From positions 1 to 61,499 of the forward strand of contig JBEEJY010000008.1 of assembly GCA_041168925.1 (NCBI GenBank): a DNA stretch of 61,499 bases. The letters run 5' to 3'. Position 1 is the stretch's first letter, and the number at the start of each line of letters is the position of its first letter. The stretch comes from Candidatus Parcubacteria bacterium. Lineage in GTDB: Bacteria; Patescibacteriota; Minisyncoccia; Phycocordibacterales; UBA2100. Shown in pieces: positions 943 through 6,633 of this stretch. The notes beneath the pieces are model-generated. The model did not search any database and was not told where the DNA came from. It worked only from the letters and a program-made list of their open reading frames with translations. The translations under genes were made by a program, and so were the position numbers.

Positions 943-1036
943 TGCAGAATACTTGAAATAGCTCGAACCAGCGCCGCCGCCCCCACCGGCGGCGCAAAAC
1001 CCCCACAGGAAAACGGCGCGGCGAAGCCGCACCGCT
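943..1036. repeat. Inverted repeat arm A (94 bp), perfect reverse complement of 2223-2316
   Basis: Base-by-base hand alignment gives 94/94 identity. The arm begins with TGC, 9 nt after the CCA of tRNA-Val. It contains a GC hairpin, GCGCCGCCG-ccccac-CGGCGGCGC. Confidence 0.95.
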
Positions 1037-1119
1037 GACAATATCAAATTTTTCTTTGGCGGACTAGGTACGGGCGTGCGGAGCGCGCACCACTAAATTT
1101 TTTAGTAGACCCAAAAACA

Positions 1120-2037
1120 TCAACGAAATACACTTATGGCCTCATTCCAATTATCGCTTTCTTCTACTCGCGGAGATGAGCCTGTAATATCTCTCCGATA
1201 CGCGATCGGATCTCGGACGAGTAATGGCTCACCGGCGTACGAAAACTCCATGGTAGAAATATCGAAAATATACTGTTGGCGCATACGAATATTATTTTTA
1301 GTTAGATTTGCATCAACGAGGAATAAACATTTGTTACGACCGCTCTGCATAACGAAACGCGTTTCGGTCGCATTTAGAGAGAAGTCAGAAACGACGATGT
1401 CGTCAATCATGTCGATGGTCTTTGCGCTAATCTCCTGCACAGATCGCTTGCAAGAATCTTCATCGCGCAAGGCAGTTTGGATCCATGTTTGTCTTTTGGC
1501 TTCAACGTCAACTTCCTGTTGTGCCTCATTTGCGGAGATCTCGGCGCTACTGGGACCAATACCAACTATCGGGAACCACAACATACGAAATTCCCACGCG
1601 AAGTATGCAGAACCAAGCAAGAGAACAACGCCTATGACTTTTGCCGCGATTGACGGACGAAATAGCAATACTATCCCTCCAGCGAAAGGAATGACGATGA
1701 CACAAAGAGGCAGCAAGAACAAACCGACAATCCAGCCGAGGCCGAACATACTAATACCAAAAGAATCAAGCGGACTTGTACAGACGCCGCCGGAACACGT
1801 GGACGGAACCAAAATGTTCATCAAGAAAAATAGTGCAACGAAAAGACACAGCAAGAAAACAGGCGTCAAAGCAATGTACGCGAAGATTCTTCCGGCAGTC
1901 CATTTCGAGGGCGGCGAAACCGCAGAGGACTGCATAGTTGTTGGGGCTTTGGAACGTCGCATGTCTTTTACCAATGCGTATATGCCCCAAACAACGAAAG
2001 CAACGGCAGCGACTAAAGCAATGGTTCCTATGGACAT
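1120..2037 (-). CDS. Hypothetical polytopic membrane protein (about 5 TM helices plus a C-terminal soluble domain); cargo of the recombinase element
   Basis: ATG at 2035-2037 gives MSIGTIALVAAVAFVVWGIYALV..., followed by several hydrophobic helices. It has low GC like the recombinase gene. The ORF-track extension to 2466 runs through the repeats and starts at TTG. Confidence 0.6.
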   Translation of the reverse strand: MSIGTIALVAAVAFVVWGIYALVKDMRRSKAPTTMQSSAVSPPSKWTAGRIFAYIALTPVFLLCLFVALFFLMNILVPSTCSGGVCTSPLDSFGISMFGLGWIVGLFLLPLCVIVIPFAGGIVLLFRPSIAAKVIGVVLLLGSAYFAWEFRMLWFPIVGIGPSSAEISANEAQQEVDVEAKRQTWIQTALRDEDSCKRSVQEISAKTIDMIDDIVVSDFSLNATETRFVMQSGRNKCLFLVDANLTKNNIRMRQQYIFDISTMEFSYAGEPLLVRDPIAYRRDITGSSPRVEESDNWNEAISVFR

Positions 2038-2222
2038 GGGGATATTATGGCACACCTTTAAGTTGCGCGACACACGAAAGCCCACAACTCTATTCGGGGC
2101 TTCTGAAATTGGTATGCCAAAAAGTTTTCTTTTTCCCGAAACAAATTCAGAGCGGGCTATGCCCGCACCGAATGAGAATGGTTTGCGCCGATGTTTTTCA
2201 CCGGGCTCTTTTGCGGTTTTCG

Positions 2223-2413
2223 AGCGGTGCGGCTTCGCCGCGCCGTTTTCCTGTGGGGGTTTTGCGCCGCCGGTGGGGGCGGCGGCGCTGGTTCGAGCTA
2301 TTTCAAGTATTCTGCACCACATAGGAAATTGCAAGGTGGAGCTCGCCGCCGCGCAGGGCGCGGCGGCTCGCGCGTACTGCAGTTTGGCCTCGAATTCAAA
2401 TTGGCGATTTCGC
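2223..2413. repeat. Abutting inverted repeat arms A' (2223-2316) and B' (2314-2413), overlapping by GCA (= TGC on the other strand)
   Basis: A' is the exact reverse complement of 943-1036. B' is the reverse complement of 3840-3939 with 2 mismatches. Confidence 0.95.
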
Positions 2414-2469
2414 TTTCGAGAAAAAGAAAACTTTTTGTTCATTCCTTTAGCAATTAGAGACAACAAAAT

Positions 2470-3990
2470 ATGAGATACGTACTATACGCCAGAAAATCTA
2501 CAGAGGAAGATGACCGCCAAGTGCTTTCAATTCAAGCTCAGCTTGCTGAGCTTTCTTCGTATTCCGCCAAAGAAAAATTTGATATTGTCGCCTCGTTTTA
2601 CGAGGCGAAAACCGCAAAAGAGCCCGGGCGGACAGGGTTCGCCGAAATGCTGTCATTCATTGAGTGTGGGAAAGCAGACGGCATCATATCGTGGCACCCC
2701 GACCGCCTCGCGCGCAATTCTGTGGACGGCGGTCGAATAATCCACATGGTGGATCGCGGCTTGATTCGTTCCCTCAAATTTCCGACCCACTGGTTTGAAC
2801 CAACCCCGCAAGGCCTCTTTATGCTGAACATTGCTTTCGGGCAGAGTAAATATTTCTCCGACAATTTGCGAGAGAATGTGAAGCGCGGACTACGGCAAAA
2901 GATACGAAACGGCGTATGGCCCGGCTGGGCTCCGGTGGGATACACAAACAACCCCAAGACACGAGGAATTGATGTAGACGAAGTAAACGCTCCCAAAGTG
3001 AAACAGCTATTTGAACTGTATTCCACCGGAGCCTATACACTAAAATCTCTCGCAAATTGGTGCGCCGAACAACATCTCAAAACGAACGCAAACAACCTAG
3101 TGTCATTGAGCAATGTTCAGCATATTCTCCAAAATCCCTTCTACACCGGACTGATGAGATACAAGTCGGAAATCTTTGAGGGGACTCACGAGCCGATCCT
3201 GACAAAGAAACTTTTTGACCGAGTGCAGGAAGTAATGAGCAAGCGCGGCAACACGCACGAAACGAAAAAGCACAACTTCGCATTTCTCGGCCTAATGAAG
3301 TGCGCCTCGTGCGGAGCAAGTATCACGGCACAATACGCAAAGGGCAACGGCGGTATCTACACCTACTACCGCTGTACCAAAAAACGAGGCGCATGTGCCG
3401 AGAAATATCTGCGCGAAGATGTGCTTGAAACGCAAGTCAAATCGTTTCTACAAAAAGTTTCTTTGTCGAGCCAAGACACGCAAAAGGTTTTGGCGGCGTT
3501 GGAACAGGACGAACAACAAGCAAAAGAGGAAGCGCGAACGGAGGCAAAAACTCTGAAAGCGGAACTCTCGACTATGGACAACCAGCTAGAAAAGTTGCTC
3601 AACCTCTTTCTCGCTGACGCGCTATCCACACACGAATACGCCACCAAAAAGAATACTCTCATATCTCAAAAAGTGAGAATGGAAGAGAAAATATCCGATA
3701 TCGAGACTATGGGCGTGTCTTGGCTCGAACCGGCTCGTGAGTTTGTATTATCCTTGAATCAAGCCGCGAATCTGCTCTCCCACAACGACTTGAGCGGAAT
3801 GACAGCATTTCTGAAAAACATCGGCGCGAACCATTCTCTGCGAAATCGCCAATTTGAATTCGAGGCCAAATTACAGTACGCGCGAGCCGCCGCGCCCTGC
3901 GCGGCGGCGAGCTCCACCTTGCAATTTCCTATGTGGTGCCCTCGGTTGGAATCGAACCAACATCAGCGGCTTAGAAGTCCGCAGTTCTGA
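2470..3990 (+). CDS. Large serine recombinase (resolvase catalytic domain, recombinase domain, zinc ribbon, coiled coil)
   Basis: N-terminus MRYVLYARKSTEEDDRQVLSIQAQ (catalytic Ser motif), ...ISWHPDRLARN; Cys cluster CASCGAS...YYRCTKKRGAC; long charged coiled coil. The last roughly 50 codons are encoded by repeat B and the antisense of tRNA-Arg. Confidence 0.9.
   Translation: MRYVLYARKSTEEDDRQVLSIQAQLAELSSYSAKEKFDIVASFYEAKTAKEPGRTGFAEMLSFIECGKADGIISWHPDRLARNSVDGGRIIHMVDRGLIRSLKFPTHWFEPTPQGLFMLNIAFGQSKYFSDNLRENVKRGLRQKIRNGVWPGWAPVGYTNNPKTRGIDVDEVNAPKVKQLFELYSTGAYTLKSLANWCAEQHLKTNANNLVSLSNVQHILQNPFYTGLMRYKSEIFEGTHEPILTKKLFDRVQEVMSKRGNTHETKKHNFAFLGLMKCASCGASITAQYAKGNGGIYTYYRCTKKRGACAEKYLREDVLETQVKSFLQKVSLSSQDTQKVLAALEQDEQQAKEEARTEAKTLKAELSTMDNQLEKLLNLFLADALSTHEYATKKNTLISQKVRMEEKISDIETMGVSWLEPAREFVLSLNQAANLLSHNDLSGMTAFLKNIGANHSLRNRQFEFEAKLQYARAAAPCAAASSTLQFPMWCPRLESNQHQRLRSPQF
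3840..3939. repeat. Inverted repeat arm B (100 bp), 98/100 identical to the reverse complement of 2314-2413
   Basis: Hand alignment. The only differences are 3871 and 3873 (TTA here versus CTG in the other copy). The arm ends in TGC, overlapping the 3' end of tRNA-Arg. It contains the hairpin GCCGCCGCGC-cct-GCGCGGCGGC. Confidence 0.95.
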
Positions 3991-4009
3991 TCCATTGAAC
4001 TACGAGGGC
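3934..4009 (-). tRNA. tRNA-Arg (anticodon TCT), CCA encoded; A31-G39 mismatch in the anticodon stem
   Basis: The reverse complement reads GCCCTCG-TA-GTTC...GAAC-T-GCGGA-CTTCTAA-GCCGC-TGAT-GTTGG-TTCGATT-CCAAC-CGAGGGC-A-CCA. Confidence 0.82.
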
Positions 4010-4077: not shown

Positions 4078-4410
4078 CTACCGATTCGGATCCGCGATGA
4101 GCGCCGGGGGGCTGGACTTGAAATTGAGAAAATTCGTCTGACGAATTTTGAATGTCCGTACCGTATCCTCGAGCGCAGAGCGGCTGAAGGGCGCGGGCGG
4201 CGGCGCCGACGTGTCCGTCGACGCGGCGATCGCGTTCAAGACCCCGATCAAATCCCAGGTGCCGTAGAAGAATATCGCGACGAGTGCGACGAGTGCGCTG
4301 CACAGGAGCACTCGCCAGTACACGAGCGCAATGACGCGAACGCCCTCCGGCTCGCTCTTGCCATCGATGAACTCTCGAAAGGTGCCGAATATATCTGCGC
4401 TGAATTTCAT
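4078..4410 (-). CDS. Hypothetical single-pass membrane protein, last gene of the pilMNO operon
   Basis: ATG at 4408-4410 gives MKFSADIFGTFREF... with one TM helix (VIALVYWRVLLCSALVALVAIFFYG). It lies just downstream of the pilO-like gene. Confidence 0.45.
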   Translation of the reverse strand: MKFSADIFGTFREFIDGKSEPEGVRVIALVYWRVLLCSALVALVAIFFYGTWDLIGVLNAIAASTDTSAPPPAPFSRSALEDTVRTFKIRQTNFLNFKSSPPALIADPNR

Positions 4411-4442
4411 ATGCCTGATCCGTCCATGATAGCTTGCTTCGC

Positions 4443-4997
4443 TCACACAGATGCTCCTGAAGACGTGAGCACCTTGATATAGAGGTCGAGATGCCATGTC
4501 TCAGGGATTTTCTCACCCGCTTGGTGCGGTGGCTGGAATACATCGAAGCGCTCAATGCGCGAGGGCACGGGAAGCGTCTCGAAAAGCGCGACCGCGCGCA
4601 TGAGATTCGAAAACGAACCATCAGCGCCCACGGTGAAGCCGATCGCCTGTGCCGAAACCCCGCCCGGAAGAGATGCCGAGGGGCCTTCCGGGAGCACGCT
4701 CGAAACTTCCGCTTTGACGCCGATCGCTTTTGCGTTCGTTTCGATCGCGTCCGCAACGGACACCACATCGACATCAAGGAGAGTTGCGAGTCCCGCGCGT
4801 GAATCCCTCGTCTCCGCGGCAAGTGCGTGAGCGCGAAGCGCGGTAGCGGCATCGACCGACGATTGACGCGTGGCAACGACACGCGAACGGCGGTCATGTT
4901 CGGCCTGCGAAATCGTCCAGGCAAACGCGGCAGCGGTGCCCCACGCGAGAATCGCGAGGATTAATGCGCCGTATGCGATGAGGGTGATGCGCGACAT
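4443..4997 (-). CDS. pilO: Type IV pilus assembly protein PilO-like (bitopic)
   Basis: MSRITLIAYGALILAILAWG is an N-terminal TM helix followed by a periplasmic domain. Position follows pilM-pilN. The assignment rests on architecture and synteny only. Confidence 0.5.
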   Translation of the reverse strand: MSRITLIAYGALILAILAWGTAAAFAWTISQAEHDRRSRVVATRQSSVDAATALRAHALAAETRDSRAGLATLLDVDVVSVADAIETNAKAIGVKAEVSSVLPEGPSASLPGGVSAQAIGFTVGADGSFSNLMRAVALFETLPVPSRIERFDVFQPPHQAGEKIPETWHLDLYIKVLTSSGASV

Positions 4998-5002
4998 AAC
5001 GG

Positions 5003-5515
5003 TCAAAAGTTACCCCTAAGAGTGACGGAAAAGGTCCCGCTCCCGCTGCCTGCCAAATCGGAGATTGGAACGGAAACGGTCTTGAAAAGCTTTTCGGTGG
5101 AAAGCGCGGCGCGGTACGCCTTGATATTCTCTCGACTGAAGGCCGACCCGTTCACGATAATCACGCTCTCGGCGCCTCGCGCGTACGATATCCGATCGAT
5201 CGCAACCCCCTTCGGACGCGCAGTGATCGCGCGCCTCACGGCTTCGGTGACATCCGTTGTCGTCGCGTAGGGAGAGAGCAGCGCAAGAAGCGCTTGCGCG
5301 TGCGCAATCGCGTCTTGGTCGTCTTTCGTGGCGATGTCGGCAGATTTCGCGGGTGCGGCGCTCTCGTCCACGCGAAGCGCGAGGTAGCTCGGCAGCAGCG
5401 AGAGCAGCGCGAGTATGGCGAGCACGAGAATCACAAGCGCGCCGAGCAAGACGAGACGCGATCGGTATGTGCTCCACGTCGATTTCGCCTCGATCAGCGG
5501 CAAGACGTTACTCAT
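5003..5515 (-). CDS. pilN: Type IV pilus assembly protein PilN-like (bitopic)
   Basis: MSNVLPLIEAK...LVLLGALVILVLAILALLSLLPSYL is a TM helix. The start overlaps the pilM stop (ATGA at 5512-5515). Confidence 0.55.
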   Translation of the reverse strand: MSNVLPLIEAKSTWSTYRSRLVLLGALVILVLAILALLSLLPSYLALRVDESAAPAKSADIATKDDQDAIAHAQALLALLSPYATTTDVTEAVRRAITARPKGVAIDRISYARGAESVIIVNGSAFSRENIKAYRAALSTEKLFKTVSVPISDLAGSGSGTFSVTLRGNF

Positions 5516-6633
5516 ACAAGGGGTTCGACGGCTCGCAGCGCGAGGCCAATCGCAGTCGCGTATTGAAGCGAGGCTCGGCGATCGATCGACGGTACGTACT
5601 CGTTGAAGTTGCAAACGTGGCGCCAGACATCTCCGCAGAAAGCGGGTGCTTGCACGCGCCCGGCGATGTAGTCCGAGAGGCCGTTCAAATTGGAGCTGCC
5701 ACCGACGAGTACGACCCTCTCGACAGGAGTCATCCGCTCGCCGCGTTCGTTGCGTCTCGTATCCCAGTAATGGTAGTGACGGGCGACCTCGTCTGCGAGC
5801 GCGGACGCGACCGGCGTCACGGCCTCGGATCCCGGTGATTTTGCGCCGTCCCCGCTCACAAGCCCCTGTTCGTTGCGAAACGTGATCGCATCTTCCGGAG
5901 TGAGCTTGAGTTTCTCGACGAGCGCGCGCGTAATGGCGTCTCCGCCGACCTCTACGGTCGAGGTGAAAATGGGAATGCCGCGCTTTAAAACGGCAAAACC
6001 GGTACGGGCGCGTCCGAAATCTACGAGGAGCGAGATCGGCTCGCCGCTTTGCGCGCTCGTGACCGCGCGGGCGATCGAGCGCGCCTCGATCTCGAGCGAA
6101 AGGAGCCCAATGCCCGCCTTCGCAAACGCGGAGACATAACTTTCTGCGAGCTCGCGAGGAAACACCGCCACCCCGATATCAGCCCCGACGCCGTCGTGCG
6201 TTTGAATGACATCGAAGTCGAAGACTGCTTCCGAGGGCGGGATCGGTACGCGGCCTTCAAACTCGAACTCGATCATGTGCAAGATTTCCGAGCGCTTCGT
6301 TCCGTCAGGCACGTGCATTTCAAACACGTAAGCCGCCTCTTCCGGCAAGGCCGCGTGCGCGTAGACGATTCCGCGCAGCTGCCGCCGTACTTCGTGAAGC
6401 GCTTCGGCGAGCGCGTCCACGTTTTGTATCACGCCGTTTATAACGATCCCCTCTTGGAGGGGTTGCTCGCCGGACGTCCCTATCTCGTACCCGTCGGCGG
6501 CGGACGAAAGGGCAAGCCATTTCACCGACGCGTCGGAAATATCGATTCCTGCCGATGCGGGGTAAATGAGCGATGGCGTCGGGAACCATCGCGCAAGCGC
6601 ACGCGAAAAAGACTGCGCACCGATGCGTTGCAT
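5512..6633 (-). CDS. pilM: Type IV pilus assembly ATPase-fold protein PilM (actin-like)
   Basis: GIDISDASVKWLAL..., LLVDFGRARTGF, VVLVGGSSNLNGLSDYI are typical PilM/FtsA-like phosphate and adenosine motifs; 373 aa. Confidence 0.85.
   Translation of the reverse strand: MQRIGAQSFSRALARWFPTPSLIYPASAGIDISDASVKWLALSSAADGYEIGTSGEQPLQEGIVINGVIQNVDALAEALHEVRRQLRGIVYAHAALPEEAAYVFEMHVPDGTKRSEILHMIEFEFEGRVPIPPSEAVFDFDVIQTHDGVGADIGVAVFPRELAESYVSAFAKAGIGLLSLEIEARSIARAVTSAQSGEPISLLVDFGRARTGFAVLKRGIPIFTSTVEVGGDAITRALVEKLKLTPEDAITFRNEQGLVSGDGAKSPGSEAVTPVASALADEVARHYHYWDTRRNERGERMTPVERVVLVGGSSNLNGLSDYIAGRVQAPAFCGDVWRHVCNFNEYVPSIDRRASLQYATAIGLALRAVEPLV

Follow-up and report, generated by a model that had tools for sequence, protein, structure and literature searches.

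An integrated large serine recombinase element of Patescibacteria with an internal inverted attachment site and interlocked complementary repeats

The stretch of DNA analysed in this study (the window) comprises 61,499 nucleotides of a Candidatus Parcubacteria bacterium (positions 1 to 61,499 of contig JBEEJY010000008.1, GenBank assembly GCA_041168925.1). Positions 943–3939 are occupied by an integrated element of approx 3 kb, which encodes a large serine recombinase (LSR) and carries the junctions attL and attR at its ends and an inverted copy of attP in its interior. It is highly probable that the element is of this type and that it belongs to a large family conserved in Patescibacteria. The family is apparently undescribed, and literature searches retrieved no description of this architecture. 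The chemistry of integration is ordinary and well supported, while the conserved, self-complementary architecture is new. The favoured explanation as a whole, with the parts shown here and those proposed in addition (among them that the repeats might form a folding scaffold for a single-stranded DNA stage), is assigned a probability of about 0.6. The finding is genuine and more unusual than it appeared in an earlier note made from the sequence of the window; the integration module is of a known kind.

Both ends of the element recur as inverted repeats in its centre. Arm A (943–1036, + strand), which forms the element half of attL, and 2223–2316 are reverse complements at 94 of 94 positions, as are arm B (3840–3939, + strand), the element half of attR, and 2314–2413 at 98 of 100 positions; both mismatches fall where 2380–2382 faces 3871–3873. 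The central copies share an overlap of three nucleotides, GCA (2314–2316), and form a complete inverted copy of the joined ends (A'-GCA-B', 2223–2413, + strand), i.e. an attP-type B-TGC-A site, which has the same arrangement in relatives. The same triplet, read as TGC, is located at the start of arm A (943–945, the crossover region of attL), nine nucleotides after a tRNA-Val gene, and closes arm B. The outer 25 to 30 nt of arm A, which is conserved in relatives, constitute a half site of the attP type, in which TCGAACC is found at a distance of 18 nt from the core, and the inner end of the arm forms a terminator-like hairpin on the − strand (1030–1013). These coordinates as well as the tRNA and gene calls of the earlier note were re-examined and hold. 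Its repeat inventory was correct for the arms and lacked four shorter blocks and the nested repeats within the recombinase gene described below. All additional repeats of the element are inverted; no direct repeats were found in it. In the remainder of the 61-kb window, no inverted repeat longer than 16 nt was found, which excludes a chance origin of the repeats of the element. The GC content determined in windows is approx 0.59–0.64 in the arms, 0.38–0.52 in the interiors and 0.53–0.66 in the flanks. An Rfam search identified the two flanking tRNAs and no other known RNA family, and no consensus sigma-70 promoters were found in the element.

The left host flank consists of tRNA-Val(TAC) (858–933, + strand; ARAGORN, Rfam 74 bits) and a host spacer (934–942). 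The target gene on the right is tRNA-Arg(TCT) (3934–4009, − strand; ARAGORN, Rfam 66 bits). The terminal TGGTGC of arm B (3934–3939, + strand) corresponds to GCACCA, the last six bases of tRNA-Arg, so that arm B restores the last two bases of the acceptor stem, the discriminator A and the CCA. The outer arms are the two halves of attP, now present as attL (host-TGC-A) and attR (B-TGC-tRNA). An empty site, as predicted in the earlier note, was found in a Kaiserbacteria genome (L154), where a convergent tRNA pair with nothing in between reads tRNA-Val...CCA-AAATATTTTGTG-TGC-CCTCGG...tRNA-Arg and contains a single TGC (after tRNA-Val, ...CCA-AAATATTTTGTG-TGC-CCTCGGTTGGAATCGAACC...). Together with the layout of the relatives, this site bears out the previous interpretation of the three junctions as attL-type, attR-type and inverted attP-type. 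With similarly high confidence, the element entered tRNA-Arg(TCT) at its 3' acceptor end by a TGC crossover, which is located in the acceptor 3' strand. The core, defined as the overlap of the central arms or the direct repeat at the ends, is 2–6 nt long in most loci and up to 13 nt in some; judged from these sequences, the variable length fits a 2-bp serine recombinase crossover with chance extension, and the true crossover is probably a 2-bp core within TGC.

The T arm of tRNA-Arg (GGAATCGAACC, + strand) represents the conserved attB half site, as derived from the right flanks of 83 loci. Insertions were found at the 3' ends of tRNAs for Arg, Leu, Gly, Phe, Val, Tyr, Ile, Ala, Ser and Glu, a wide range of targets that is explained by the T arm being the host half site. 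In both subfamilies, the motif TCGAAC and the core are 13 nt apart in the tRNA flank and 18 nt apart in arm A. In the published LSR model, the motif of the zinc ribbon domain is shifted by 5 bp between attB and attP half sites; by analogy, TCGAAC is assumed to be the zinc ribbon contact. The pair tRNA-Val(tac)/tRNA-Arg(tct) is convergent in the window, in L154 and in a further relative (L046), while the two genes are co-oriented neighbours in the Kaiserbacteria relatives L001 (1584–1730) and L002 (8601–8917). This tRNA cluster may have undergone an inversion long ago.

The recombinase is encoded by an open reading frame (ORF) on the + strand (2470–3990), which is intact across all repeats. Its product contains the Pfam domains Resolvase (PF00239, the catalytic domain, residues 4–150, E = 4.5e-21; the motif YARKS supplies Ser10) and, C-terminal to it, Recombinase (PF07508, E = 4.9e-17) and Zn_ribbon_recom (PF13408, E = 7.2e-11). 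It matches the structure of the C-terminal domain of the A118 integrase (4KIS), and the closest solved structures are the A118 and SPbeta integrases. Matches to the CcrB, CcrA and XisF profiles were weak (CcrB, 110 bits versus a cut-off of 900). The conserved protein stops at approx 3837 (at least 456 amino acids), and the lengths of homologues vary at the C-terminus; the coding sequence of the tail runs through arm B and the antisense of the tRNA. The second gene (1120–2037, − strand, with an alternative start at 2085) encodes a hydrophobic protein of approx 305 amino acids, probably a membrane protein, without a match in Pfam or NCBIfam. Both genes diverge from the central attP copy. In relatives, this cargo is different in each case and is always encoded on the strand opposite to the recombinase. 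Since the cargo differs per locus, there is no conserved third gene. A candidate gene for a directionality factor is absent, and no Rep, relaxase, replication or partition gene was found in the 3-kb element.

More than 7000 homologues of the recombinase were found, the best 120 of which are 66–92% identical and stem, where the source is named, nearly exclusively from Patescibacteria. For the comparison, 127 related loci from genomes and metagenomes were used. The layout is conserved and recurs with lineage-specific sequence in approx 30 of the 35 independently assembled relatives having enough sequence. Among these 35 loci, the arm pairs B/B' and A/A' are present in 30 and 31, respectively, and the shorter blocks S2, S7, S6 and S4 in 34, 32, 30 and 29. 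An assembly chimera or inverted-duplication artefact, which had previously been considered capable of overturning the interpretation of the locus, has a negligible probability. The window is, judging from the relatives, probably part of a metagenome-assembled genome, and the inverted repeats break many related contigs at the arms; but dozens of assemblies, which originate from different projects and were made with different assemblers, show this layout together with lineage-specific sequence and compensated changes, and the ORF runs unbroken through all repeats. A further suggestion, integration followed by recombinase-mediated rearrangement, is unlikely because the arrangement is the norm of a conserved family.

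The arms are 76–92% identical between loci at different tRNAs. Since they are homologous whatever the tRNA is, the arms are element DNA, and a host origin was rejected. No relatives were found in viral contigs, and a phage origin was likewise rejected. Distant recombinases (41–43% identity) were observed in Verrucomicrobiota and Hydrogenedentota bins (L036, L039 and L041), where inverted repeats of 139–400 nt flank the gene and neither repeats within the ORF nor A-type arms are present; possibly, this is how a recombinase enclosed by inverted repeats looks in an older or simpler version.

Near the arms, four blocks of 22–30 nt (S2, S4, S6 and S7) repeat in inverted orientation one block immediately upstream of the recombinase gene (S4') and three blocks within this gene. 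S2 (1037–1066, + strand) directly follows arm A and is an inverted copy of recombinase codons 31–40 (30 nt with 97% identity to 2560–2589, exact over the 27 nt of 1037–1063 and 2563–2589). S7 (2201–2222, + strand), located directly before A', matches 2606–2627 (codons 46–53) at 22 of 22 positions and is followed by a terminator-like hairpin on the + strand (2229–2246). The partners of both blocks are neighbours in the gene and form an in-gene bridge (2560–2627, + strand) composed of S2' (2560–2589), a 16-nt hairpin h (2590–2605; GCCTCG-TTTTA-CGAGGC with flanks) and S7' (2606–2627). S4 (2118–2141, + strand) is a 24-nt, 96% inverted match to S4' (2414–2437, + strand), which abuts B' and lies 32 nt upstream of the recombinase ATG. 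On the − strand, S4 precedes the cargo gene by 80 nt, or by 32 nt if the alternative start is used, and the S4' sequence, preceding both genes on opposite strands, may be a shared promoter or leader. S6 (2174–2200, + strand), separated from S4 by the variable spacer S5 (2142–2173, + strand; 1–32 nt in relatives) with a local hairpin GCGGGC-TAT-GCCCGC, is a 27-nt, 96% inverted match to the 3' segment of the recombinase gene (S6', 3812–3838, + strand), which abuts arm B. An interpretation of the S blocks as crossover sites of a separate recombinase module was rejected: no dinucleotide is shared at S4|S5 and S6'|B, and no recombinase-only element (A followed by S7') was found among approx 90 loci. 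In one lineage (L023, 4885–5060, and L122, 22–180), the recombinase gene begins at approx residue 39, and approx 25 nt resembling the start of B' connect it with the 3' end of tRNA-Ser(gga). The breakpoint corresponds to the S2'/hairpin h site within the gene.

Besides these blocks, the recombinase ORF holds at least seven perfect inverted pairs of 14–17 nt, which are strictly nested (all within 2644–3811, + strand): 2644–2658/3797–3811, 2754–2767/3756–3769, 2820–2835/3109–3124, 2862–2875/3046–3059, 2928–2944/3017–3033, 3201–3217/3451–3467 and 3466–3481/3713–3728. The minimum free energy of the ORF is −494 kcal/mol, compared to −386 ± 9.5 kcal/mol for 24 synonymous-codon shuffles (z = −11.4), and the minimum-energy structure consists of exactly these nested helices. 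Inner repeats are limited to the recombinase gene; the cargo is devoid of them. Three unrelated contigs (L061, L062 and L064) end within the recombinase gene at approx residue 425 (approx nt 1275), next to 3' arms of inner helices and not at an arm.

The complementarity of the repeats is maintained while their sequences change. Throughout the family, the repeats keep their positions, and their pairing is exclusively of the Watson-Crick type. For S7, three main sequence variants exist, each of them with a matching partner. The S6 block of one relative (L033) differs in sequence and still matches its partner perfectly, and the stem of hairpin h reads GCCTCC...GGAGGC in L045. In S6, in hairpin h and in the ORF helices a, b and d, changes between lineages affect both sides, and some of the compensated changes come at the price of an amino acid change. 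An alignment of 69 genes revealed that four long-range helices and hairpin h retain 81–96% Watson-Crick pairs across both subfamilies, while the remaining ORF helices are subfamily-specific. Mismatches of the G.T and A.C type are similarly frequent in the arms (47 and 48, respectively), the S blocks (52 and 45) and the inner repeats (26 and 23), so that there is no wobble bias in any class of repeats on either strand. From a structured RNA, a clear excess of G.U on one strand is expected. By these sequence comparisons, the repeats look to be under selection for complementarity at the DNA level rather than in an RNA-like manner, and the mismatch signature fits a DNA with a role for both strands, or a requirement for sequence identity itself.

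These counts bear on control at the RNA level, by which a tight fold of the mRNA, or pairing of an upstream RNA containing S6-S7 or of an antisense RNA bearing S2 with the coding region, would lower the amount of recombinase or silence read-through. The extreme fold of the ORF, the confinement of the inner repeats to the recombinase gene and the terminator-like hairpin after S7 speak for it, as does the fold-back inhibition of transposase mRNA known from IS10. RNA structure as the purpose of the repeats is nevertheless disfavoured by the symmetric G.T and A.C counts. Moreover, near-perfect helices of 94–100 bp are unlike RNA regulatory structures, A and S2 are located 1.4–1.5 kb upstream and beyond an oppositely oriented gene, and no consensus promoter was found. 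Control of this kind is therefore considered unlikely.

The orientation of the recombinase segment is strongly biased. In more than 90% of the loci with a nearby tRNA, the tRNA is located at the 3' end of the recombinase gene, and approx 4–6 of approx 65–70 such loci place it on the other side. S2 and S7 are found inverted upstream of the gene in nearly all loci with enough sequence. A tRNA upstream of the recombinase was seen in few contigs (L055, L062 and L064), and B-core-A is located downstream of the recombinase in L070 and L101. The latter two were considered as excised circles, which was not upheld, since an inverted isomer or an assembly path through the repeat explains them equally well. 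L142, initially taken for a new arrangement, is the standard layout on the other strand.

A double-stranded circle with two inverted attP copies, similar to the yeast 2-micron plasmid, could have integrated via one of them, the other allowing integration independent of orientation or amplification of the copy number. The geometry is exact, as the joined ends yield B-TGC-A, the inverted central copy, and the arrangement in L070 and L101 would be in line with it if these contigs are neither inverted isomers nor mis-joins. Two identical sites, however, predict equal use, i.e. orientations of approx 50:50, whereas one orientation strongly predominates; the 3-kb element contains no replication or partition gene, and the S blocks and ORF repeats are left unexplained. 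The circle, one of the readings offered in the earlier note, is thus rather improbable.

A programmed double inversion switch, also proposed there, would have the recombinase flip the cargo segment (A-A') and its own segment (B'-B), resulting in four isomers that differ in their properties. Near-perfect inverted repeats of 94–100 nt delimit both segments, and the recombinase gene is located inside one of them, as in Hin-type systems. At tRNA-Val(cac), L055 differs from L054 and L059 in having the tRNA upstream of the recombinase, as is the case in L062 and L064, and the simplest origin of two rearranged relatives (L045 and L046) is a flipped isomer. Against this, the predominance of one orientation has to be set, and no intact locus with flipped cargo was seen. 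As a switch of expression the model is weak: the S4' block upstream of each gene lies in the same segment as the gene and a flip would leave expression coupled. With an integrase-type enzyme of large size and arms of 100 nt, the system is unlike those with 26-bp sites of the hix type; synapsis of attP with attL or attR is not expected under established LSR models; the nested repeats in the ORF are not accounted for; and the flipped contigs may be mis-joins. A switch is accordingly improbable.

Cassettes lacking a recombinase with the structure A-S2-cargo-S4-B are common at tRNA ends. L046 is such a cassette at the same tRNA-Val/tRNA-Arg site as in the window, L045 represents a deletion between two S7 copies, and L135 terminates with S4-S5-S6-S7-TTTTGGTGC at tRNA-Leu. 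L045 and L046 match the products expected from an inversion of the recombinase segment, by which S blocks become direct repeats, and a subsequent deletion. Whether a rare homologous inversion over the 100-nt arms, followed by deletion between the S blocks, generated the recombinase-less cassettes is judged to be evenly balanced. In approx seven relatives (L047, 6474–6520; L060; L014/L094; L075; L100; L114; L025), a diverged A-type arm, with GAAC at the spacing typical of attP, takes the place of the tRNA after B-core; this suggests tandem accretion into an older attL-like site, i.e. arrays of cassettes. Tiny remnants were observed at tRNA ends in L150 (5985–6148) and L145 (4916–5221), consisting in L150 of approx 29 nt of the start of arm A and approx 37 nt of the end of arm B immediately before tRNA-Leu(caa); they look like near-empty cassettes or scars.

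For the architecture as a whole, a folding scaffold that acts in a single-stranded DNA stage is tentatively proposed. Single strands might occur, for example, during uptake by natural transformation or upon exposure at the replication fork. In one strand, pairing of A with A' and of B' with B would align both ends of the element on the internal copy, and duplex attP would be rebuilt. The inner end of the A:A' helix runs into S2 on one side and arrives from S7 on the other; both blocks pair with S2' and S7' around hairpin h, a geometry that corresponds to a four-way junction without unpaired bases. The same four-way geometry is seen at the inner end of B':B, where S4' and S6' face S4-S5-S6. The segment from S6 to S6' (2174–3838) alone folds without a pseudoknot. 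The S2'-h-S7' bridge would tie both ends of the variable, otherwise unstructured cargo loop, and S4-S5-S6 would tie the recombinase loop likewise, giving two four-way junctions in all. As the bridge of the cargo loop resides in the conserved recombinase gene, the ends of the loop would meet whatever the cargo is. The scaffold is preferred because it covers the nesting, the fully paired junctions, the strand-symmetric mismatches and the location of the cargo bridge in a conserved gene. A more specific version, in which either strand serves, the internal attP and the two bridges are splints rebuilding duplex attP without an excision factor, and the element is adapted to transformation, is doubtful. 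Patescibacteria are known to perform natural transformation.

Several points weigh against the scaffold and the processes linked to it. Single-stranded and circular forms of the element are hypothetical, the element contains no Rep or relaxase gene that would produce single strands, and the LSRs known to us all use duplex DNA as substrate. Internal repeats are absent from the cargo loop, so that folding does not extend to the entire element. Once A:A' and B':B have formed, the S helices would be pseudoknotted and possible only if the structure hinges at the core. One folding DNA strand should tolerate G.T slightly more than A.C; given the observed symmetry, both strands must matter or identity as such is required. 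Ordinary gene conversion could keep the arms perfect, the recombinase-less cassettes could be the primary form instead of decay products, and the five contigs with opposite orientation (L055, L062, L064, L070 and L101) could be assembly mis-joins through the 100-nt repeat.

In the neighbourhood of the element, an ORF for ribosomal protein L19 (102–800, − strand) is listed with 232 amino acids, the L19 domain comprising only residues 95–188; its true start is probably located further downstream. Directly past tRNA-Arg, a gene for the type IV pilus protein PilM (PF11104, E = 7.8e-34) is found in a region covering 4078–6633 on the − strand, followed by three small ORFs without family match at the positions expected for PilN and PilO. 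Pili belong to the DNA uptake machinery; with respect to transformation, the PilM neighbour is context only.

LSRs are major tools in genome engineering, and their known biology is based on duplex attP and attB and on a separate factor for reversal. In the present family, thousands of natural copies have retained the inverted attP in their interior, the four bridge blocks and a recombinase gene whose fold is as strong as that of a structured RNA genome but bears a DNA-type signature. The conserved architecture suggests a so far undescribed step in the mobility of serine recombinases. If the scaffold works as proposed, it would show how an element without a candidate directionality factor gene leaves or re-forms its site, how arbitrary cargo is carried and how genes move between the tiny genomes of Patescibacteria, in which few mobile elements have been characterised. 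If the splint reading is true, the site of a serine recombinase would be assembled on a nucleic acid template, and transformation would be the route to which the spread of the element is adapted. Should the scaffold turn out to be regulatory, the family still constitutes a compact cassette system targeting the conserved T arm of many tRNAs.

Among known systems, the yeast 2-micron plasmid resembles the circle inferred here in having two inverted repeats, each with a recombination site, that divide it into two unique segments. It differs in that the present element has a serine instead of a tyrosine recombinase, no replication or partition gene, and isomers that are far from equimolar. In integron attC sites and CTXphi attP(+), as in this element, one arm of a self-complementary site stays inside the element and the other is split between the ends; these sites are, however, used by tyrosine recombinases with exchange of one strand, and their hairpins are imperfect with extrahelical bases, whereas the present element has a serine recombinase only, and perfect helices of approx 190 bp. 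The resemblance is geometric only. The invertases Hin, Gin and Cin share a recombinase gene enclosed by inverted repeats, and the enhancers of Hin and Gin are located in the 5' part of the recombinase gene, as is S2'-h-S7' here. These invertases comprise approx 190 amino acids, act on 26-bp sites with a Fis enhancer and commonly occur in both orientations, in contrast to the integrase-type enzyme, the arms of 94–100 nt and the single predominating orientation described here.

The LSR integrases of phages (A118/LI, SPbeta SprA, Bxb1 and phiC31) have in common with the present recombinase the set of Resolvase, Recombinase and zinc ribbon domains, a short crossover core, an insertion that restores the target gene and, if TCGAAC is the corresponding motif, attP- and attB-type half sites sharing a motif at spacings differing by 5 bp. 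In contrast to phages, the element has a size of only 3 kb, one variable cargo gene and no candidate directionality factor gene; it possesses an internal inverted attP, interlocked complementary blocks and a strongly folded recombinase gene, and targets the 3' ends of many tRNAs, and no relatives of it were found in viral contigs. From the staphylococcal cassette chromosome (SCC; CcrAB/CcrC) it is set apart by Ccr profile matches far below the family cut-off and by the tRNA 3' end as target instead of rlmH; the internal sites of SCC and Tn4451 are direct and not inverted, and no scaffold like this one has been reported for them. In SCC, Tn4451 (TnpX) and Tn5397 (TndX), an LSR moves a small cargo element via a circle without phage functions, and SCC and the clostridial transposons share with the family described here the insertion at the 3' end of a conserved gene, the occurrence of cassettes lacking a recombinase and the apparent tandem accretion.

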